A DNA stretch of 20,000 bases, taken from IMG/VR virus record IMGVR_UViG_3300006922_000014. One strand, given 5' to 3'. How positions within the stretch are numbered: the first letter of the stretch is position 1; every line of letters begins with the position of its first letter. Source of the DNA: an uncultured virus (IMG/VR IMGVR_UViG_3300006922_000014). Taxonomy: Duplodnaviria > Heunggongvirae > Uroviricota > Caudoviricetes. The translations under genes and the position numbers were made by a program. Below, one piece after another: positions 1 through 17,087 of the stretch. The notes beneath the pieces are model-generated. The model made no database searches. It was not told the origin of the DNA and worked only from the letters and a program-made list of their open reading frames with translations.

Positions 1-475
1 CTTTATCATTTATTAATCTTTTATAATATACTTCAGCATTCTTGATTTGATCCGTCATATGTAACTTAGTATCCATATTAGCTGTTCCGGTATGCTTTCT
101 AGTGTAATTCATCATATCACCAGCAACCATTCCGTTTGAACATACTTTAACATAAGCTCCTATAGCACACTGAAACCTTGTACTTTTATCATAAGAGTTT
201 GTCCAAGAGAACATCATACCTAGTTCTTCTTCTTCCATTATACTGCTATCAACAGGATTTAGAGGCTTTAAATGATAGATACCTTGTGCTACATTAGCAT
301 TCATATTAGATCTATAGACCTCTTTTATTATAGTGAATCCACTTGCATTAAGTAGACTCATAGTGTTGTCTATCACTTCTTTGTGTGATATGACTGTGTA
401 AGATTTACCATGGTTAGGTAAAGGTTGACTTTTTAGAAATGCTTTAGTCACTTCTGTTGGTTTTTTATATCCCAT
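1..475 (-). CDS. DUF932/DUF945-like phage protein (3'-truncated by window edge)
   Basis: Manual translation from ATG at 475: MGYKKPTEVTKAFL...YTVISHKEVID...WTNSYDKSTRFQCAIGAYVKVCSNGMV...RKHTG. The NSxD, CxNG and RxHT motifs are typical of DUF932. Not in the supplied ORF track. Confidence 0.75.
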   Translation of the reverse strand, partial: MGYKKPTEVTKAFLKSQPLPNHGKSYTVISHKEVIDNTMSLLNASGFTIIKEVYRSNMNANVAQGIYHLKPLNPVDSSIMEEEELGMMFSWTNSYDKSTRFQCAIGAYVKVCSNGMVAGDMMNYTRKHTGTANMDTKLHMTDQIKNAEVYYKRLINDK

Positions 476-526: not shown

Positions 527-1369
527 TTAAAATATATATCTTATTGTGTTTAAAGGAAAATACTTCTTGTATATATCCTTGAATTCATTGATTAGCCTGC
601 CTTTATGTTCTAAAGGATACCTCATAACGCCTGATTGATTTTTAACTTCATAAGAACGCCTCATTAGTTCCTGGGCTTCTGGTGATGCTTTAATCATTTG
701 GTTCTTATGATTGGTTAAAGCTATAACCTCACATTTATTTATACCTGCTAGTTCTTTTACCTGTTTAAAAAGCTTATTATATTCTTCTTTCCAACCGGGA
801 TAAAAGACTAAAGGGCTATAATTAAGATGAACTTGCCAACCTAAATCTTTGAGACGGTTAACATCAGCTATACGGCTTTCTATCTTTTGCATCTTAGGTT
901 CTAATATATTAGAATACTTCTGAGGCATAAGACTAACACGTACTCTTGGAGGCTTGTTAAAATTACTAACGTCTAACGTTAATAGTCCTGGATACTTTGT
1001 AGCCATTGTTGTATTAAGATTTTTATGTTTATCATACATAAGCAAGTAATCATATAAAGAAATTCCTGCTTTCTTTACATGTTTTTGCATAAGTACTAAA
1101 TCTGTATTACAAGCAATGTCTACCATTGTGTATATAGGGTCTTGTTGATCAGGTACCTTATAGTAACTTTTTTCCCAATCAACAACAGACTTAAATATTT
1201 GGTCAACGTTTCTATTTACAAAAACTCTTTTACCATTATACCTAGACATATAACAATAGGTATCTACACAGCCACCAAAACAACCATATATGAGGTTTGG
1301 GGCTATGCAGTTAGCACTATTATTATTTGGTTTAGTTACAAGAGTTGTTGTTTTCTGTACCTTAATCAT
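527..1369 (-). CDS. Radical SAM protein, spore photoproduct lyase (SplB)-like family
   Basis: N-terminal Cys cluster GCFGGCVDTYCY; DIACNTD (compare SplB EAACTSD); ATK; RVRVSLMP; VHLNYSP; RY near the C-terminus. All recall the SPL-like family. Confidence 0.8.
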   Translation of the reverse strand: MIKVQKTTTLVTKPNNNSANCIAPNLIYGCFGGCVDTYCYMSRYNGKRVFVNRNVDQIFKSVVDWEKSYYKVPDQQDPIYTMVDIACNTDLVLMQKHVKKAGISLYDYLLMYDKHKNLNTTMATKYPGLLTLDVSNFNKPPRVRVSLMPQKYSNILEPKMQKIESRIADVNRLKDLGWQVHLNYSPLVFYPGWKEEYNKLFKQVKELAGINKCEVIALTNHKNQMIKASPEAQELMRRSYEVKNQSGVMRYPLEHKGRLINEFKDIYKKYFPLNTIRYIF

Positions 1370-1721
1370 TTCTTATGTAAGCTGACTCAGTGCCAGATAT
1401 AATATCTATATCTTTTACTTCAATATCTTTTACAAATTGACCGTTAACCATCTTTCCGGTACGTTTAGAGATTACATCATAAGCTGACTTGAGGCAGTAT
1501 TCTAAAGATACATTCTGCATCTTAGCCTGAATAATCAAGGTGACCATAATATCACCCATAGCATCAACAATCTCTTCACGGTCATCAGCATTGATAGCCG
1601 TGCAGAGTTCAGTTGTTTCTTCTAATGTTTTCAACGCTTGGGCCATTGGTGTGGCTTTGTCAAAAATACCTTTTTCTTCTGCCCAGCTTTCTACTGCACA
1701 TTCTAGTTCAAAATAATCCAT
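1362..1721 (-). CDS. MazG-like NTP pyrophosphohydrolase (single domain)
   Basis: WAEEKGI...QALKTLEETTEL...EIVDAMGDIMVTL...AYDVISKRTGKMVNGQFVK. Carries the EExxE / DxxGD metal-binding pattern of phage MazG-like proteins. Confidence 0.85.
   Translation of the reverse strand: MDYFELECAVESWAEEKGIFDKATPMAQALKTLEETTELCTAINADDREEIVDAMGDIMVTLIIQAKMQNVSLEYCLKSAYDVISKRTGKMVNGQFVKDIEVKDIDIISGTESAYIRND
1378..1390. repeat. 13-bp imperfect direct repeat, copy 2 (TAAGCTGACTCAG)
   Basis: 12/13 match to 510-522. Lies in the last codons of the MazG-like gene. Confidence 0.5.
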
Positions 1722-1725
1722 ATGT

Positions 1726-3717
1726 TTAAAATAATTTTAATTGATTAGATGACACCGTTAATATACTATTTATCTCAGACTCAATTGCTTGTAGATAATA
1801 AAGCTTATTGATATTATAGTTTTCCCATTTAGGTTCTACTTGCATATCATTAAATAAACTTTGTAACCACTTACCAGCCTCTAGTTGTATTTCACGATCA
1901 TCATTTTTGTTAACTTTTACGATCTTTACTCCATCTTTAGATATAAAATACCTATTGATTTTTTGTAATTTATCTTCAGTGTACTTGCCATCTTTAACAT
2001 ATCTTGCTACTTGTTGCCAATTACCCTTTGATTTACCACCTATACAATAATCTAGAATGTTTTTATTTTGTTCTAGATAGTCTTCAGGTAATATGTTTTT
2101 TACGAAGAAAGCATATATAGCTTTTGGTATAACTAACTTAGACTTGTTTTTATGTAACTGTAGGTTATGAAAATCAAATCTACCTTTCAGCTTAACAGGA
2201 GCATAGCTAAACTTATCATTCTTGACATTAAATAAATAATGTGGTAATGATTGTTTTACTTCTCTAAACTTTGTTATGTCAACATCAATAAAGTTGTTTA
2301 CACCTATATAGTTATTTACATCTGAAAGTATTAATTTTTGATATTCATCATGTTCTAAGTTTAAACTAGTTTTCTCCTCCCACTCTTTACATATCTGCAT
2401 ATATAAATCATAGTGCTCTCTTGGTATAATAGTTTCTACACCATCCGTGTTCTGTAATAAAGCAACAGCACCCGGTATACGCTCCATGATTTGTTCATAC
2501 AACATCATCAACGTTAGCTGACCATTAATTGTAATTCTCATACACAATTCTGGATCATAAAAGAAGCTATTTACATCATTGCTAAGACCAAATGTAGAAT
2601 TAAGTATAATCTTATATACATAATTCATTGGATTGCTCTTAGGAATCTTCTTACGCTCTTCAAAGAACCACTCATACTGATCACAAAACTGGTCAACTGG
2701 AAAATGTTCAGGAGACCATTTATTTTTGATTGCTAAGTTTGGGTAAAAAGATGTTACATCTGAACTCATAATTAACATATCATCATCACTTTCATAAACA
2801 CCTTTGTTAGCAGCACCATGTGCACCACCTAAACCAAAATGTGTCTTTACAGATTTATAGTTTATATGATATTTGAAACTACCTTTCAGGTTAGAAGCAT
2901 CTATCTCTAAAGTTTTAAACCTATCATGTAGTGTTTTAAACTCTTGAGATGTAAATGAAATGTATGGTAATAAAATATCAGATACTTTAATATTAGATCT
3001 ATGAGTCCTCATTTGTTTGAGATCTCTTTTTGGTATATTAAGCTTTTCTGATAAATAATAACCAAATAGTTCTTTACTAATTCTTGGTTCAGAGGCGCTA
3101 TATAGATTTATATTATATGTATCTGTTAGTTCTTTACGTAGTTTAATCTGTGACTTTGACCTATTAAATATTTCTTTGGTTGACTGTACATCATTAACAT
3201 TATATTCAATGATAGTGTTAATCTCCTCAAGAGTTTTAATTTCAGCTGTATGATCTATAGGCATTTCTAATATATTTTGCCAGTCCATACTATATTGTAT
3301 CCACTTAAGACTAGAACGTTTAGCCGGGTTATCCCAATGGTGTAACTTAAATAGATCTATCTGACCTATTTTCATCTTCCATATGGGGTAATCCATAAAC
3401 TCTTTGTTATTAGACTTATTAATACAGTACTGTGCGTACTTATAAATTATATTAGCTATCTCACATCCTTTAAGATTGTCCCATAAATAGTAATTATCTA
3501 TTATATATTGAGTGATCTGGCCATCAAATGCTAAACCATTGTATGATATATGCCACTCTTTATTATCTACATTATCTTTTAAGAAACTTATAAAATCATC
3601 AAAATCATTACGCAGGTCATGAACAACAAATGTTTTACTCTCATTTGTTTTATAATGCTCAAATACCCCGGTGAAACAATTAGATAAAGTTTCATAGTCC
3701 ATTACCCAGTGTTTCAT
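1726..3717 (-). CDS. polB: Family B DNA polymerase with 3'-5' exonuclease domain
   Basis: ExoI DYET, ExoII YNGLAFD, ExoIII YNVNDV; polymerase motif A SDVTSFYP, motif B KIILNSTFG, motif C QNTDG; downstream VNNY and KLKG. Confidence 0.92.
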   Translation of the reverse strand: MKHWVMDYETLSNCFTGVFEHYKTNESKTFVVHDLRNDFDDFISFLKDNVDNKEWHISYNGLAFDGQITQYIIDNYYLWDNLKGCEIANIIYKYAQYCINKSNNKEFMDYPIWKMKIGQIDLFKLHHWDNPAKRSSLKWIQYSMDWQNILEMPIDHTAEIKTLEEINTIIEYNVNDVQSTKEIFNRSKSQIKLRKELTDTYNINLYSASEPRISKELFGYYLSEKLNIPKRDLKQMRTHRSNIKVSDILLPYISFTSQEFKTLHDRFKTLEIDASNLKGSFKYHINYKSVKTHFGLGGAHGAANKGVYESDDDMLIMSSDVTSFYPNLAIKNKWSPEHFPVDQFCDQYEWFFEERKKIPKSNPMNYVYKIILNSTFGLSNDVNSFFYDPELCMRITINGQLTLMMLYEQIMERIPGAVALLQNTDGVETIIPREHYDLYMQICKEWEEKTSLNLEHDEYQKLILSDVNNYIGVNNFIDVDITKFREVKQSLPHYLFNVKNDKFSYAPVKLKGRFDFHNLQLHKNKSKLVIPKAIYAFFVKNILPEDYLEQNKNILDYCIGGKSKGNWQQVARYVKDGKYTEDKLQKINRYFISKDGVKIVKVNKNDDREIQLEAGKWLQSLFNDMQVEPKWENYNINKLYYLQAIESEINSILTVSSNQLKLF

Positions 3718-5136: not shown

Positions 5137-6132
5137 CTATAATTTAACTTTATTTACTAAAAATTCATAGGGTAAACTATAGTTTCTTTCATTATAATGA
5201 TACTCAGCTGCTTTTAATACACCACCAAGACCTTCTGCCCAACCACCTAATGTTTGTTGAGACACATCAAATACATAAGTTTGATTATATTTATCAATTA
5301 CAACAAATTTAAAGTCTATTGTATAATCATCACGGTTCTCTACAGATTCCATATAGTCCCATACTAACTTACAATATATAGATGCTTGCAACCAATAATT
5401 ATAAAAATCTACTGTTTCTTTAAAATCACTTATTGTTTTACCTGTGGTTTTTAAATCAGTTATAACAGCTTTTTTCTCCTTATGATCTATGCTAAAGAAA
5501 TCTATATAACCATGTAAACCAAAAGGTAAACCTTTCAATTTACAGCTAAGGTATTTTTCTGCATGTGTTTCATAATCATCTAATTCAAAATCTGTAGGTG
5601 CCTCTTCAAATATAGCCATAACATCACTGTTACTTTTAATAATCTCAGATTGATCTTTACATCTTAGTAAAGTATCTTCATCTATTACATCTACATTGCT
5701 ATTAGATAAAAATTCCCAGTAAGGTTCAAACTCATCTTTTATGATTTTAACTATACGTTGTTCATCTGTTTTAAGAGATTGATACAAGTTCATTTCTTTG
5801 AGTGAATCTAATACTATTTCAGATGGAACATCAAAGAGCTTTTCTGCATCTGTATACAAAGACATATTTTTTAATACCTTTCTGACACTATCTGATGGTG
5901 CTTTACCGGGTGTTATACTAAACTTATCTTTTAAATTATCAGGTTCAAATAATAAACAATGAAGTAGCTTTCCTTCTACTAAATGCTTATCTGTTCTAAC
6001 CTCTTTATCTTTTAATATATAATCCTTATAAAATAAGAATGGTGAAAATAATAACTTGTTTAAAGAAGAGTAGCTAAAGCAAAATTTATTATTTGCATAA
6101 AACTCCTCTTCTTTTTGAAAATTTCTATTCAT
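5137..6132 (-). CDS. PD-(D/E)XK exonuclease (RecE/Exo VIII-like)
   Basis: FSYSSLN, GKLLHCLLFEP, E(K)...GYIDF...DLKTT and YWLQASIY match the RecB/RecE-type nuclease motif series. Confidence 0.85.
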   Translation of the reverse strand: MNRNFQKEEEFYANNKFCFSYSSLNKLLFSPFLFYKDYILKDKEVRTDKHLVEGKLLHCLLFEPDNLKDKFSITPGKAPSDSVRKVLKNMSLYTDAEKLFDVPSEIVLDSLKEMNLYQSLKTDEQRIVKIIKDEFEPYWEFLSNSNVDVIDEDTLLRCKDQSEIIKSNSDVMAIFEEAPTDFELDDYETHAEKYLSCKLKGLPFGLHGYIDFFSIDHKEKKAVITDLKTTGKTISDFKETVDFYNYWLQASIYCKLVWDYMESVENRDDYTIDFKFVVIDKYNQTYVFDVSQQTLGGWAEGLGGVLKAAEYHYNERNYSLPYEFLVNKVKL

Positions 6133-7267
6133 TTACGTTTTCTTCTATTTTGTCTACAATATACAAATTATCTAAATCAACTTTAAATATATCTGAACTA
6201 TCACCAACAATTGGTCCAAGTAAAGTATTTAAAAGCTGCTTTCTAGATTTATCTACTGCAAACCTTGTTAATTTTCTATCTTTTGCTAATAATGATAAGT
6301 AATTATTAAAACTATATATGGTGTTTGTGTTATGAACTCCTTCATATGCTTTTAATCTATTACGCATTGCCTTAACATTAACTGAATTCCAGTTATTTGT
6401 ACTCTTGAACCATTCATATTTCCAATAATATAATCCTGATACTACATCAAAAGATTTTTCTATATTACAATTAGCCATCATTTCTACTGCTAAAGATCTG
6501 TTGTCTATATCTGTGCTTTCAATCATTTTTCTAATATCTTCATATTTATCATTCCCTATTACTGCTAGCTCACTATCAATAATATTAGATATATCAGTAT
6601 CAAACACAATTTGACTTGTTGACTGCATAAGATTATTAAAAGCTTCCGCACTCTTTTTAGGTAATATCCAATCATTACCCTCATCATTACTCAGATCTTC
6701 ATCAATCATATATTTATTTACCTCGTCATATAATTTAGGGCTGCTGCCGTTCCAATGCTTATTTACTTTAAAATCTATCATACTAAAAGTTGGAGTTTCA
6801 TTTAAAAACTCTTGTATTTTAGCTGTTGCTAAATCAGTAAATGCATCTTTATCTGCTTTCATCCATTTTACAACTTGAAATAAAGACTGATATGGTATAG
6901 AACTAGCCCATGTTCTTTCAAGTAGGGTGTCAAATAATTTTAATGATACTATACATATATCTGCTTTTGTTATATCTCTTATAACTTTACAATTATATTT
7001 ATCTTTTATCAAATCCATTTTTTGTCTTGGCAGAGTTATCTTAGGAAATCTATATATTTTTTTATCCTGCAGATCTATTTCTTGATCACTTTCTACTACA
7101 GGTAAACCTATTTTTTCTAAATCTTCAGCTTCAACTTGCCAACCATTTTTATTATATAGCCATTGCTCTTCAACTTTATTAAATTCTATAGCGGATGCTT
7201 TAATTTTGCCATTTGAATCTATATGCTCATCATATAGATAAATATTAAATTTGTACTTCGGTCTCAT
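6125..7267 (-). CDS. Uncharacterised protein with BRCT-like segment and shared helical motif (paralog of 7275..8306)
   Basis: aa 69-108 KKIYRFPKITLPRQKMDLIKDKYNCKVIRDITKADICIVS and aa 236-272 VIGNDKYEDIRKMIESTDIDNRSLAVEMMANCNIEKS align by eye with the neighbouring gene. Confidence 0.7.
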   Translation of the reverse strand: MRPKYKFNIYLYDEHIDSNGKIKASAIEFNKVEEQWLYNKNGWQVEAEDLEKIGLPVVESDQEIDLQDKKIYRFPKITLPRQKMDLIKDKYNCKVIRDITKADICIVSLKLFDTLLERTWASSIPYQSLFQVVKWMKADKDAFTDLATAKIQEFLNETPTFSMIDFKVNKHWNGSSPKLYDEVNKYMIDEDLSNDEGNDWILPKKSAEAFNNLMQSTSQIVFDTDISNIIDSELAVIGNDKYEDIRKMIESTDIDNRSLAVEMMANCNIEKSFDVVSGLYYWKYEWFKSTNNWNSVNVKAMRNRLKAYEGVHNTNTIYSFNNYLSLLAKDRKLTRFAVDKSRKQLLNTLLGPIVGDSSDIFKVDLDNLYIVDKIEENVNE

Positions 7268-7274
7268 AATTTTT

Positions 7275-8306
7275 TTATTTTAAATATTTTTGATATTCTT
7301 TTTTAACAGCTACTTTAAATGTGTAAAGGTCTCTGTTATGAATGCTTATCTCTCTTCTTACTATAGGTTCAAGATATCTAAACGTTATTGTGTCAAGTTT
7401 ACCTTCTTGCTCTAACCATAATATCATGTCTTGTGCACTCTTACGGTTAAAATTGTGAAAGTTTGACGAATCCAACCAATACTGTAGATCCTTATCTCTA
7501 TTGTCTGCATATGTTATACTACTACAATCTTGTGCAAACTGCCATAATAAATGATAGTTTTTCTTATAGTCTATAGTAGGAACAATTTTAAGAGCTAAAG
7601 CTTTATCATCACCATATGAATTCAACTGGGCCTTAAGATCACTGAGAAGTTGCTCATCAAGAGTCATTTTGGTAGCAGACGCATGAAGGACTGTCTCAGG
7701 ATCAATAACACTAACATCTGTAGTATCAATTATATGAGCTAAGTTTATAGCCATACCAGTTAACATCCAGCTATCATATAAGCTATCTTCTATATCTATA
7801 TCATAGTATCTTACATTATCTGTAATCTTTGGTGTAATGATACATTCTAGACCCGAATTAGCTATATTTTTAAGAACGCCATGTCTATTCACATCTCCTT
7901 TTGTAGTCTCATAATTCCATAACTTATTCATCATTATAGTAGTTGGAATATTCTCCGCATTACTTAATTTATGAGTTGTTATTTCTTCATGACCTATGAT
8001 TAGATCAGCCAATTCATAATCATTTGTTACAGTTATACCATGCTCTTTAAGAGCAGACTTTAATCTATCTTGTGATACATTACACTTTGGTAGTATAAAA
8101 GCTTTCTTTTTGGTTCTAAAAGTTTGGTCATCCTCAGTAGGGACCGTTAGTATAGTGTTTATCTTTTCATAAGTTGTTTTATCTTGAGTACATAATACTT
8201 TATTAATACCTGTACTAGAAACTAACCCATAAGTAGGGTCAGTCTCTAGTCCAAAGTATACTAAAGCATCAGTATCAAAATCTTGATATACTGATTTATT
8301 TGCCAT
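7275..8306 (-). CDS. Uncharacterised protein with BRCT-like segment and shared helical motif (paralog of 6125..7267)
   Basis: aa 67-106 KKAFILPKCNVSQDRLKSALKEHGITVTNDYELADLIIGH; aa 214-250 MTLDEQLLSDLKAQLNSYGDDKALALKIVPTIDYKKN. Confidence 0.7.
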   Translation of the reverse strand: MANKSVYQDFDTDALVYFGLETDPTYGLVSSTGINKVLCTQDKTTYEKINTILTVPTEDDQTFRTKKKAFILPKCNVSQDRLKSALKEHGITVTNDYELADLIIGHEEITTHKLSNAENIPTTIMMNKLWNYETTKGDVNRHGVLKNIANSGLECIITPKITDNVRYYDIDIEDSLYDSWMLTGMAINLAHIIDTTDVSVIDPETVLHASATKMTLDEQLLSDLKAQLNSYGDDKALALKIVPTIDYKKNYHLLWQFAQDCSSITYADNRDKDLQYWLDSSNFHNFNRKSAQDMILWLEQEGKLDTITFRYLEPIVRREISIHNRDLYTFKVAVKKEYQKYLK

Positions 8307-9590: not shown

Positions 9591-10754
9591 TTAATTAAGT
9601 TGTATTTTCTGTCCTGGTAAATCTTCATTTATACTACTCCTGCTACTATGCACCCATAATGTATTATGAGGACAGTTATCAGGAGAATATGCTTCACCAT
9701 CTGTTAAATATATAAGGGCTGTATATTGCCCTTTGTTTTCATTAAAGTGATCTATTACTGGTTGGAAGCTTGTCCCACCACGACCATGTATTTCCCAATC
9801 CTTTTTTGGATTAAATTCCTTCACGCTATTCAAGCGGGTATCACACTGTGCAACTGTAATTTTATGACCAGTCTTATGCATATGCGTAAGCTCACTAAAG
9901 AATTCCTTTAGTTCATCATTGTTTACAGATCCACTTGTGTCAACACCAACAAGTATATGATTCTTGAATTTAATCTTAAGTCCCGGATTAGCTGAATAAC
10001 GTTTATTGTATTTACGTCTCAGCTTTTTAGTATAAACTATACTAGAGTTACCTACAAATCTTCTTAGATAACCTTTCCAATCAAACTTTGGTGGTTCAAT
10101 ATGCATTAGTCTATGAATTAAATCAGCAAGCTCACCAGGCATACTACCTTGTTTCTTTTCTGTTTCCTCTGCGGCTGCTTTTAATTGATGTTCTATCTGC
10201 TTTTGAACCAACTTCTTATCAGCTTCAGGTAATTCTTCAAAATCTTTCCATGTGCTATGACAATAAGGTGACTCACCATTCATTTTATCCATTAAACTAT
10301 CTAGAGATGGGGATGTCCCGTCCTCTTGTGCCTGCTCCAAAAGTCTATAATATTCTTTTGTACCGGCTTTAGTAGGGAGGTTTAGTTCTGGGAAACTTGA
10401 TAATAATAAACCACCTTCAGGTAATTTACTTTCCAGTATGTACTGGTTTATCTCTAAATCTGCAGCTATATTAAATAGCTTATGATCACTGTAGAGATCT
10501 CTTAATATTAAATGACCAAATGCAATATGCAATAGCTCATGTTTAATTAATCCAAATCTGTGATCTTCACTGAGTTCATTATAAAACTCTGGGTTTATAG
10601 TCAATTGCATACCAATACCTTGCTTACTAACTCCTGCTGTAGGAATCTTATTGCTGTATTGCTTATTGATACCAATTAAAAAGAGCCCATAAAAGGGCTC
10701 TGTAAATATTAAACTTTTGGTTGTTCTTGCAACCTGGTCTTGTATATTTATCAT
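9591..10754 (-). CDS. DUF2201-type metallopeptidase + vWA domain protein
   Basis: HELLH zincin motif, NIAADLEIN, MIDAS VDTSGS, RGGTSF and YLTDG. Confidence 0.9.
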   Translation of the reverse strand: MINIQDQVARTTKSLIFTEPFYGLFLIGINKQYSNKIPTAGVSKQGIGMQLTINPEFYNELSEDHRFGLIKHELLHIAFGHLILRDLYSDHKLFNIAADLEINQYILESKLPEGGLLLSSFPELNLPTKAGTKEYYRLLEQAQEDGTSPSLDSLMDKMNGESPYCHSTWKDFEELPEADKKLVQKQIEHQLKAAAEETEKKQGSMPGELADLIHRLMHIEPPKFDWKGYLRRFVGNSSIVYTKKLRRKYNKRYSANPGLKIKFKNHILVGVDTSGSVNNDELKEFFSELTHMHKTGHKITVAQCDTRLNSVKEFNPKKDWEIHGRGGTSFQPVIDHFNENKGQYTALIYLTDGEAYSPDNCPHNTLWVHSSRSSINEDLPGQKIQLN

Positions 10755-11050
10755 CTTTTTATTTTTCTAAGAATATCCATGTATATATCATCTACTTTAC
10801 TTTTTTTAATGAATGCATAAATTTTATTTGTGTCTAATGAGTTAATTTTAAAGCTATATTTTACAGCTATACAAAAATCTACACGATCTTTAAACATTAA
10901 AGCTTTGGCCATAAGTCTATTAACTACTTCTTTTTCCTGGTAGTCAGTATTATTATACATATGCCAAGCCAATTCTTTATCTTCTTGTAGACCACTAAAC
11001 ATTTCTTTGTATTTAAAAAATTCATCAAGAGTTATTACTTTTTTTTTCAT
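10751..11050 (-). CDS. Small protein consisting largely of the helical motif shared with 6125..7267 and 7275..8306
   Basis: aa 4-40 KVITLDEFFKYKEMFSGLQEDKELAWHMYNNTDYQEK. ATGA overlap with the vWA gene. Confidence 0.7.
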   Translation of the reverse strand: MKKKVITLDEFFKYKEMFSGLQEDKELAWHMYNNTDYQEKEVVNRLMAKALMFKDRVDFCIAVKYSFKINSLDTNKIYAFIKKSKVDDIYMDILRKIKR

Positions 11051-15358: not shown

Positions 15359-15945
15359 ACTACGTTTTCTTTAAAGTGTTCATCTTCTGTGCTTACTCCG
15401 TCAACTATCATATCACAATAATCAGCTAATCTAGAATGTTTAACTCTATGCTTATCTTGTTTAGATATAAAGTATTGACTTGTCTGCATATACAAGTAGT
15501 CTGCATCTCTATACTCATTCACATACATTCTGGTTGCTTTTATTATATCATCCCATGTATGATCATAAGTTTCAAAGAACCATCTAAAATTTTCTCCTAA
15601 TGCTTTAACATTATTTCTTGCTGGATTACCGCTTGGTAGTTTCTTAGCAGGAAATATTTCTCTATAAGTATGGATCTTATCATTAAAGTCCTTACCCATG
15701 AGTTGTATATCAGTTTTCTTTTTAGCTTTAATAAAATAGTTATCTAGCTTTGCACAAAATGCTTTTGCATCTGGTGTCATTTTATAAAGACCATCCTCTA
15801 GAGTGAGCATGTTCATTTTTAATAAATATTCTTTGTCTTCAGATAATGAATTAGGTAATGATACGCCTTGCTTCATTCCAAATAGGATCAACGCTTGGTT
15901 TGGTGTTATCTTTACTTTCATTATCTTCTGAAATAGTTCCCACAT
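15355..15945 (-). CDS. Hypothetical protein, possible replication initiator/helicase loader
   Basis: wHTH-like N-terminus (ITPNQALIL...YKMTPDAK), YREIFP and YMQTSQYFI. Translationally coupled to dnaB. Function inferred from position only. Confidence 0.55.
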   Translation of the reverse strand: MWELFQKIMKVKITPNQALILFGMKQGVSLPNSLSEDKEYLLKMNMLTLEDGLYKMTPDAKAFCAKLDNYFIKAKKKTDIQLMGKDFNDKIHTYREIFPAKKLPSGNPARNNVKALGENFRWFFETYDHTWDDIIKATRMYVNEYRDADYLYMQTSQYFISKQDKHRVKHSRLADYCDMIVDGVSTEDEHFKENVV

Positions 15946-16360
15946 ATTTTTCTAAGTGTTTTAAAGTGTTATCATGAGCATCCATAACTTTTTTATCATT
16001 TGTAAAAAATCCATTTTCAATCATTGTACATGAATTGATGATGGTTGCATGGTTGCGTTTTAAAAATCTACCTATACTACTTTTAGTATGTCCTTCCTTG
16101 TGTGCCAAGTAAGACATTACCTGTACATATACAAGGTAATCTCTGAATCTAGTCCTATGCTGTAGATTTTTAACTCTACTAAATTTTGGTTCATTCTCAT
16201 GTAGAGCTGCTAATGCACTGTCATGAAATATACCTAAAGGAATCCTTTTGTTTTTTTCTTGGGGGGTGTAAATATACAATTTTACTCCATAAGATGTATA
16301 AAAAGATTTTTTAAATTCAGCAATATCTTGCTTCTGGTTAAGTTCCTGGTTATTAGCCAT
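15851..16360 (-). CDS. DnaA C-terminal (domain IV)-like HTH protein
   Basis: RTRFRDYLVYVQVMSYLA...SSIGRFLKRNHATIINS matches the DnaA domain IV signature (R..R...MYL...IG..F..RDHTTV). Confidence 0.75.
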   Translation of the reverse strand: MANNQELNQKQDIAEFKKSFYTSYGVKLYIYTPQEKNKRIPLGIFHDSALAALHENEPKFSRVKNLQHRTRFRDYLVYVQVMSYLAHKEGHTKSSIGRFLKRNHATIINSCTMIENGFFTNDKKVMDAHDNTLKHLEKYVGTISEDNESKDNTKPSVDPIWNEARRIIT

Positions 16361-16382: not shown

Positions 16383-16413
16383 CAAAGATAGTAAAATTTA
16401 CCATTCTATACAA
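16383..16413 (-). promoter_or_regulatory. Bacteroidota sigma-A-type promoter (TTG-N20-TATCTTTG)
   Basis: Minus strand TTG at 16413-16411, a 20-nt spacer, then TATCTTTG at 16390-16383, upstream of the ATG at 16360. Confidence 0.7.
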
Positions 16414-17087
16414 GGTATATCTTGCTTTTCTAACTCTTGGTTTACTTTATTAAAGACATCATTACAATCCCATTCACCACCTCTGTATGCTGCTGAAGCT
16501 GGATGTGTAACTTTATAAATTTTTTGATTATTAAGCATTGTTTCCCATGCTTCTGCTTTCTTACCCATAAGTATTACAGGTATGTTTTTCTTATGTCTAT
16601 TTATATTTTCAAATATATATCTTGAAAATGGTTTCCATAAATCATAATGTGAGCCAATAGAGTTTACTTCACATGTAAATGCTGTATTAATAAGTAATAC
16701 GCCTTGGTTAGCCCAACATCTTAAATCAGTGTGATCTGTACCAATTGCTTTGTTTATATATTGTAAAGACTTTTCTGCTTTACCTTTTCTGCTACAGCTA
16801 AAAGCTATACCATCCGCAACACCTAGCTGTGGATAAGGATCTTGACCTACTATTATACATTTAAGATCACTATAATTACATTCTTTAAAACCATTAAAGA
16901 TGTCTTTAAATCTAGGTGTAAATCTTCTTTCTGCATTTACTAAGCTTACTAGTCTTTCAACTATAAGATCAAAGTCAAGACCATTTATAAAAGGAGTAAG
17001 CATAGGTGCCCATCCTGAGTCTTGTAGTTTATCATTTGCTGAATCTCTTAATTCATTTATGTCAATGTTAATTGGTATTTGTTTCAT
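16398..17087 (-). CDS. ung: Uracil-DNA glycosylase, family 1
   Basis: IVGQDPYP, ADGIAFS, WANQGVLLINTAFT, SH..LW, LMGKKA, HPAS and F.KVN. Confidence 0.93.
   Translation of the reverse strand: MKQIPINIDINELRDSANDKLQDSGWAPMLTPFINGLDFDLIVERLVSLVNAERRFTPRFKDIFNGFKECNYSDLKCIIVGQDPYPQLGVADGIAFSCSRKGKAEKSLQYINKAIGTDHTDLRCWANQGVLLINTAFTCEVNSIGSHYDLWKPFSRYIFENINRHKKNIPVILMGKKAEAWETMLNNQKIYKVTHPASAAYRGGEWDCNDVFNKVNQELEKQDIPCIEW

Follow-up and report, generated by a model that had tools for sequence, protein, structure and literature searches.

The open reading frame at positions 527..1369 of the window, i.e. the whole 20,000-nucleotide stretch of viral DNA analysed here, encodes an intact radical SAM protein that belongs, by sequence and predicted structure, to the spore photoproduct lyase (SPL) family, with a likeness far above chance. 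Since the residues that in SPL hold SAM, read the dihydrothymine and carry the radical cycle are kept, the most economical reading is direct reversal of a lesion of the spore photoproduct (SP) type: a working, shortened SPL-family enzyme would reverse an SP-type thymine dimer, independently of light, in the phage's own DNA, a reading to which we give a probability of about 0.5. The gene, its motifs and its neighbours are as follows.

527..1369, minus strand: short SPL-family radical SAM gene, 280 aa, open reading frame with ATG start
1253..1282, minus strand: cluster motif CFGGCVDTYC, residues 30-39 (C30, C34, C39), from the translation and the 4fhc alignment
1100..1120, minus strand: DIACNTD, residues 84-90, including C87, from the translation and alignments
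614..655, minus strand: beta-hairpin region SYEVKNQSGVMRYP, putative counterpart of the SPL R304/Y305 hairpin, from the translation, the model and the profile alignment
1362..1721, minus strand: MazG-like nucleotide pyrophosphohydrolase, 119 aa (PF03819, 29.9 bits; phrog_715, E 1.4e-28)
1726..3717, minus strand: DNA polymerase, 663 aa, one edge of a variable slot (phrog_1252, E 3.9e-127)
2..475, minus strand: DUF932 protein, truncated where the window ends, second border of the slot (PF06067, 31 bits; synteny)

The ATG of the SPL-family gene lies within the final codons of the MazG-like gene, with an overlap of 8 nt, and no upstream extension of the reading frame is possible; a 51-nt spacer sets the gene apart from the downstream DUF932 gene, whose uncut product has 293 aa in the complete relative G001. 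The initial annotation had placed the gene after polB and mazG. A MazG-like gene and a DNA polymerase are indeed found upstream, whereas the family B status of the latter is not confirmed: the polymerase had no sequence match in Pfam (E<=0.1) or in the PDB, and was read as family B from motifs set against the consensus motifs of that family. Two contigs from metatranscriptome libraries (two studies) lie over the gene, at 485-738 (X18) and 331-919 (X19), with DNA carry-over possible, and a 1306-nt contig (X17), the library of which is only guessed to be RNA, spans 416-1721; because DNA may be present, these contigs are not counted as evidence of expression.

Concerning family membership, the protein scored 56.5 bits (E 2.7e-15) with the Pfam SPL model PF20903, for which the gathering cut-off is 27, its residues 10-212 aligning with profile positions 68-258 of 338. 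The best-scoring curated model was TIGR03886, with 137.4 bits (E 6e-40) over model positions 62-346 of 346, and TIGR04070 gave 58.7 bits (E 4.6e-16), both scores being under the equivalog cut-offs of 437.55 and 400, respectively. Of the two HMMs named as comparators at the outset, TIGR03886 matched, below its cut-off, and TIGR00620 was absent among the NCBIfam matches of the protein at E<=1. In the PDB, phmmer matched SPL structures only (4fhc, E 1e-8), and the profile of an alignment of 59 SPL-family sequences (alignment A1) matched 4fhc with an E-value of 2.5e-34 over chain residues 92-366, which are residues 65-339 of the native SPL once a 27-residue tag offset, derived from the printed alignment, is subtracted.

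The AlphaFold2 model obtained with the same alignment is confident throughout (pLDDT 96.3, pTM 0.93) and displays the partial TIM barrel, C-terminal helices and hairpin of the SPL fold. With this predicted model, Foldseek placed six SPL entries on top (best E 1.8e-16, TM 0.73-0.76), the next radical SAM enzyme being RlmN (E 1e-4), and VIA-align superimposed 265 of the 280 residues on SPL 62-341 (4fhc/4fhf; Z 26.3, rmsd 2.4 A), with PFL activase as runner-up (Z 14.2). The first assignment of the protein, an SPL-like radical SAM enzyme with its H-donor cysteine in DIACNTD, is borne out by Pfam, by TIGR03886, by the 4fhc alignments and by the fold; SPL is the top match in both sequence and fold, and no clustering with a non-SPL radical SAM family was seen.

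No PHROG family was found for the SPL-like protein, and a tblastn search of 50,697 deposited phage records, among which close relatives of the window may have been withheld, returned nothing for it at E 1e-5; Cellulophaga phage phi14:2, a cultured marine crAss-like phage, was likewise without a match. With a short form nearer the centre of the family (P0145), a single weak match was obtained in deposited phage genomes (E 8e-4, 20.5% identity). No paper on SPL-family genes in phages was found in the literature. Automatic annotation in some sources labels these proteins 'spore photoproduct lyase'.

The functional residues of the Geobacillus SPL, including the H-donor role of Cys140, are described in its structure paper (PMC3467042). 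Mapped through the A1 profile alignment to 4fhc, they correspond to the following residues of the phage protein.

SPL C90/C94/C97 to C30/C34/C39: cluster cysteines, with two more residues between the second and the third
SPL Y96/Y98 to Y38/Y40: radical relay
SPL C140 to C87: H-donor
SPL K174 and S195 to K125 and S146: SAM contacts
SPL R193, E268 and Y339 to R144, E214 and Y278: dihydrothymine contacts
SPL S79 to S18: 3'-thymine loop

Across the 59 sequences of A1, C30, C34 and C39 are invariant, and S18, Y38, K125, R144, S146, E214 and Y278 are conserved at 90% or more. Y40 is also kept, being present in 55 of 72 representatives of the wider family and invariant in the 15 closest, and C87 falls opposite Cys140 of the Geobacillus enzyme (ACTSD) with both phmmer and the family profile. 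The cysteine cluster had been located at residues 30-39 from the start, and the translation agrees (CFGGCVDTYC); what that annotation passed over is the spacing, which is CX3CX4C versus the canonical CX3CX2C (CMGHCHYC in SPL).

Other parts of SPL are changed or missing. R273 is replaced by a nearly invariant threonine (T219) and K309 probably by V248, although the loop alignment is less certain there, so that neither phosphate contact is kept. The R304/Y305 hairpin tip corresponds to K243/N244, in a hairpin whose strands lie, in the model, at residues 241-242 and 248-250. In most of the short family, the hairpin comprises 23 residues and ends in a [Y/F/H]-G tip resembling SPL Y305-G306; that of the phage protein (EVKNQSGVMRY) is about five residues shorter and has no aromatic residue at its tip, a shortened form shared by the nearest cluster representatives. 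Finally, as had been noticed initially, most of the N-terminal region of SplB is missing: the protein aligns only to SPL residues from about 62-65 on, up to 341, and is devoid of the alpha/beta domain at the N-terminus (a four-stranded sheet plus three helices). An HMM of that missing part, which recovered 64 of 80 positive controls, found no match in the six frames of the window's own record and of one complete relative (best E 2.1).

When 1.84 billion cluster representatives were searched, 183 matched at E<=0.001, 27 of them at E<=1e-30. Full-length family matches are mostly 277-300 aa long and begin near TIGR03886 position 62, and nine short representatives (279-298 aa), among 23 scanned, scored 132-347 bits with that model. 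The cluster motif of the short proteins exists in two versions, CX3CX2C and C-x-G-G-C-x3-Y-C, the latter being CX3CX4C. In a quick maximum-likelihood tree of 99 rows, from which 13 fragmentary representatives and, in addition, all those below 262 or above 460 aa were left out, the short forms make up one clade (68 rows, SH-aLRT 98), next to which the full-length TIGR03886-type proteins form a clade of 13 rows; the outgroup consists of seven TIGR04070-leaning representatives, not bona fide Firmicute SplB, with the root on a clade of five. The CX3CX4C version is not cleanly monophyletic in this tree, the inner nodes of which are weakly supported. Judged by its sequence, the 280-aa protein is outside both curated families, TIGR04070 and TIGR03886, in a separate short clade.

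Bacterial relatives were surveyed with one genome per species, as the best 80 of at least 599 matches. Among these 80 loci, 62 hold long forms with CX3CX2C and 53-97 extra N-terminal residues, carried by Cytophagales, Sphingobacteriales, Chitinophagaceae, Myxococcus and Actinobacteria, including Curtobacterium, and ten hold short forms of 291-294 aa with CX3CX4C. The latter occur in Lewinella/Neolewinella, Cesiribacter, Candidatus Odyssella, Paracaedibacteraceae and Legionella sp., as well as in MAGs of Rickettsiaceae, Burkholderiales and Janthinobacterium. At five of these ten CX3CX4C loci, the neighbours are housekeeping genes, e.g. metK, mreB, miaA, mfd and glycerate kinase, and no phage hallmark domain was found in 45 ORFs. 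Because such chromosomal copies lie amid housekeeping genes, the short CX3CX4C form is a free-standing protein of both cells and phages and not an artefact of phage truncation. No SPL-family protein from outside the spore formers with a demonstrated substrate was found in the literature.

These results bear on a competing reading, in which the same radical chemistry would act on another nucleic-acid substrate, either a different thymine or pyrimidine lesion, or single-stranded or replicating DNA rather than SP flipped from a duplex. The absence of the N-terminal domain, the altered phosphate contact at T219, the short hairpin without an aromatic tip in the protein's own subclade, the scores under both equivalog cut-offs and the separate, well-supported clade of short forms all point that way, as does the presence of the short form in bacteria without a known dry or spore stage (Legionella sp., Odyssella, Lewinella). 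The equivalents of R193, E268 and Y339, the serine of the 3'-thymine loop and the Cys-Tyr relay are kept, however, which argues for a very SP-like substrate; a distinct substrate is accordingly rated as unlikely, while being the most serious competitor to SP-type reversal.

In IMG/VR, at least 594 stretches encode a relative of the SPL gene. Of the 80 best phage loci, 65 are intact (270-295 aa), 13 are cut by a contig end or have no called start, and two are of other lengths. All 65 intact copies have the CX3CX4C motif, and all 65 have the cysteine of D[IV]AC[NS][TS]D that is equivalent to C87. When the copies were compared with the gene of the window, the Nei-Gojobori dN/dS was 0.10 at the median and at most 0.17 over 59 pairs, three further pairs being saturated. 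As for occurrence, among 31 loci anchored on the polymerase and flanked by 8 kb or more on each side, the SPL gene lies within 10 kb in 18 and is absent in 13; PF20903 was not found anywhere in five whole records without an SPL gene near the polymerase, one of them a 114,829-bp record rated 100% complete. The SPL-family gene is accessory in this group of 114-117 kb crAss-like phages, yet it is under purifying selection.

It is very improbable that the gene is a dead or decaying remnant, whose stretched motif would be unable to hold a [4Fe-4S] cluster. Such a view draws on the departure of CX3CX4C from the canonical radical SAM spacing, on a literature without a paper naming CX3CX4C together with 'radical', and on the dispensability of the gene. 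It is at odds with three cysteines that never vary in the 59 family sequences, with a spacing kept in every intact phage copy and also found in bacterial chromosomal copies, with the low median dN/dS and with a model that is confident from end to end.

The window is a single replication/recombination block on the minus strand, the same strand as the SPL gene. Its order is helicase, UDG-superfamily protein, DnaB-like helicase, Sak4, primase, RusA and DUF2201 peptidase/VWA, continuing with MoxR-like ATPase, PD-(D/E)XK nuclease, polymerase, MazG, SPL and DUF932. Among relatives, the position of the SPL gene varies: PolB-MazG-SPL-DUF932, PolB-SPL-DUF932, upstream of the PD-(D/E)XK gene or downstream of DUF932. 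The gap from PolB to DUF932 ranges from 32 to 4997 bp, and this interval behaves as a slot for optional cassettes.

One of the two initial proposals was that the protein, together with MazG and PolB, forms a nucleotide-modification or sanitising unit, in which it would act as a DNA-modifying enzyme by analogy with gp53 of Pseudomonas phage M6. According to PMC8989533, gp53 is a radical SAM N-alpha-glycinylthymine isomerase, for which isomerisation of glycinylthymine in DNA has been demonstrated, and the authors used SPL to model it; it thus acts on a thymine derivative in DNA, and in the window the start of the SPL gene overlaps the stop of MazG. The distribution of the two genes speaks otherwise. 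Where the flank was sufficient (62 loci), MazG is directly upstream of SPL in 21 and missing from the locus in 38, and in the 66 loci with PolB and DUF932, which are non-independent samples, SPL and MazG occur together in 25, SPL alone in 15 and MazG alone in 16, the remaining 10 having neither gene. The presence of one gene is thus independent of the other, with no sign of linkage, MazG being a neighbour and not an obligate partner. Moreover, no thymidylate synthase or hydroxymethylase homologue was found in any of five complete or near-complete relatives, no kinase, transferase or PLP gene was found among the 105 ORFs of G001 (Pfam, E<=1e-5), and gp53 itself matches the family profile over 54 columns only and has no Pfam SPL match. 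With genes that sort separately, no hypermodification genes and only a remote similarity to gp53, the proposed unit is not supported, and a modifying role of this kind is considered quite improbable.

The window comes from a 29,273-bp IMG/VR record, estimated to be 25% complete, with a GC content of about 31%. Relatives whose SPL is 71-86% identical have a length of 114-117 kb and a completeness of 99-100%, and terminal repeats are present in one. In the complete relative G001 (105 ORFs, Pfam), the replication module is that of the window, and it is accompanied by genes for the tail proteins CrAss_Ring_1 and CrAss_Ring_2, by giant ORFs, the largest of 4607 aa, and by a class I ribonucleotide reductase. 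From this gene content, including the CrAss ring proteins, the phage is taken to be crAss-like. Crassvirales infect Bacteroidota, and by analogy a Bacteroidota host is expected here as well; the complete 114-117 kb relatives with crAss tail-ring proteins lend indirect support to the non-sporulating host presumed in the initial annotation. Five related records, three of them complete, were searched for a photolyase gene and for one resembling T4 endonuclease V, and neither was found.

Short SPLs with the canonical motif also occur in the replication module of another, unrelated type of viral contig (47-54 kb), which codes for a primase-helicase fusion, Sak4 or Erf, Gam and RusA. At 6 of 16 of these loci, a DUF932/phrog_1221 gene is adjacent to SPL or close by.

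As a whole, a shortened, well-conserved and optional relative of SPL is found in this uncultured marine crAss-like phage, which for that reason is likely to mend a thymine cross-link in the DNA it carries. By homology to the Geobacillus and Bacillus SPL, C30, C34 and C39 would hold a [4Fe-4S] cluster cleaving SAM reductively, with K125 and S146 holding the SAM. The resulting 5'-deoxyadenosyl radical would take a hydrogen from C6 of the 5,6-dihydrothymine moiety, the base being gripped by R144, E214 and Y278, and the methylene bridge to the adjacent thymine would then be broken. C87 would supply the final hydrogen, and the radical would be returned via Y40 and Y38. Such repair could proceed in the dark after injection, alongside replication. 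Dark repair of SP in phage DNA was the other of the two initial proposals, and among the mechanisms considered it has the most support.

Indirect support for SP-type repair is given by the five records without a photolyase or endonuclease V-like gene, and by an SPL-family gene of the non-sporulating Curtobacterium that is reported, in PMC12029717, to be induced by UVC. Other points go against it: the missing N-terminal domain, R273/K309 contacts and hairpin tip, the CX3CX4C spacing, the scores far below the equivalog cut-offs, and the existence of relatives that manage without the gene. Concerning the lesion itself, SP forms in dry or A-like DNA, according to references given in the same paper, and no report of SP in hydrated phage particles was found in the literature.

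A wider proposal, which is tentative and clearly less probable than not, is that sunlit marine phage particles gather the SP-type dimer in their dense DNA and that compact CX3CX4C phage lyases, which have no N-terminal domain and belong to a family also present in chromosomes of non-sporulating bacteria, reverse it in the dark after injection. Sunlight is regarded as one of the main causes by which viruses decay in surface waters, their repair being usually ascribed to the host photolyase. If the proposal were true, SP would have been missed as a lesion outside spores, the 'spore-only' lesion arising in virions, and UV repair in phages would have a third route beside host photoreactivation and DenV-type excision; a dark, direct-reversal enzyme in a phage would alter the understanding of UV survival in marine viruses. 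It would also provide a naturally minimised SPL (280 aa, with an altered cluster loop) for the study of lesion finding by radical SAM enzymes, and an entry point to the SPL-family genes, as yet unexplained, that non-sporulating bacteria carry.

Among known systems, T4 endonuclease V (DenV) is the classical phage-encoded, light-independent repair enzyme for UV pyrimidine dimers. It is a glycosylase/lyase acting on cyclobutane dimers, unrelated to SPL in fold and chemistry, and no homologue of it was found in the five related phage records. M6 gp53 shares with the protein described here that it is a phage-encoded radical SAM enzyme, one that acts on thymine-derived DNA. It is 480 aa long, and hhalign aligned it to the family profile with a probability of 90% across those 54 columns. 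Its gene lies in a kinase/transferase/PLP/thymidylate-synthase cluster, whereas these phages have no such cluster; the genes that define the gp53 type, for a 5-hmdU kinase, an aGPT-Pplase and a PLP decarboxylase, were not found among the 105 ORFs of G001.

Closer to the phage protein is the TIGR03886 family of non-spore-formers (343-385 aa), its sister group in the tree, function being unproven in both. Unlike the phage protein, the long forms extend 53-97 residues further at the N-terminus and show the CX3CX2C spacing, and their representatives have E, N or T at the position of Cys87.

The closest characterised relatives are the SplB/SPL enzymes of Geobacillus thermodenitrificans (4FHC/4FHD/4FHF) and Bacillus subtilis (TIGR04070, PF20903), to which the identity is about 20%. 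The differences are CX3CX4C in place of CX3CX2C, R273 changed to threonine, K309 not kept, no Tyr305-type tip, and a gene that belongs to a phage whose host does not sporulate; the common ground is the fold, the three-cysteine site, the place of the beta-hairpin, and the equivalents of the Tyr96/Tyr98 relay, the Cys140 H-donor, K174/S195, R193/E268/Y339 and Ser79.

The space between the putative family B DNA polymerase gene (PolB) and the DUF932 gene is variable in this group of phages: across 66 related loci, the gap between the two ranges from 32 to 4997 bp and holds MazG, a member of the spore photoproduct lyase (SPL) family, both, neither, or other ORFs. The features of the window and of the compared loci that are considered here are as follows:

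475-1726, variable slot between DUF932 and PolB
2-475 (minus strand, cut by the window edge) and 527-1369 (minus strand), DUF932 gene and short SPL gene; the same neighbourhood in two other SPL-bearing loci, L335 (5118-6840) and L332 (2795-5115)
8308-10754, adjoining pair of a MoxR-like AAA ATPase (phrog_1297) and a DUF2201 metallopeptidase/VWA protein (PF13203 and PF09967)
15851-16360, small protein whose helix-turn-helix resembles that of the DnaA C-terminal domain
16398-17087, UDG-superfamily protein (PF03167; phrog_12143, a PHROG annotated as of unknown function)

In two unrelated phage types, a DUF932 gene (PF06067/phrog_1221) adjoins the short SPL gene or lies near it. It is found directly downstream of SPL in 34 of the 62 crAss-like loci, and in the unrelated type of about 50 kb it adjoins SPL or is one gene off in six loci out of 16. 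As DUF932 follows PolB also in crAss-like genomes devoid of SPL, this proximity may merely be the product of a common insertion slot.

In the complete crAss-like relative G001, the third gene downstream of SPL (L084:3312-3626) is a 104-aa ORF with a match (E = 6.9e-11) to PF18909, the dATP/dGTP diphosphohydrolase N-terminal domain. Scanning this genome with Pfam revealed no PurZ-type gene.

SPL relatives were also found under bacterial names. Among the best 80 of at least 599 matches (genome contigs, one genome per species), a 19-kb contig of a Flavobacteriales MAG (L088) and a 100,089-bp contig of a 'Clostridium sp.' MAG (L089) carry SPLs that are 79% and 69% identical to that of the window, respectively, both with the CFGGCVDTYC motif kept; these are probably phage contigs binned into bacterial genomes. 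In Candidatus Odyssella thessalonicensis (L091:4249-6861), metK, the S-adenosylmethionine synthetase gene, is directly followed on the same strand by a short SPL-family gene with a CX3CX4C motif.

The replication module of the window also includes the UDG-superfamily and small helix-turn-helix proteins. The ORFs on either side of the MoxR-like/DUF2201 pair (6125-8306 and 10751-11050) gave no family match. For the 663-aa DNA polymerase (1726-3717, minus strand), no Pfam match was obtained at E ≤ 0.1 and a PDB sequence search was likewise empty; it strongly matches phrog_1252, and its stretches DVTSFYPN, KIILNSTFG and NTDGV resemble motifs A, B and C of family B polymerases.
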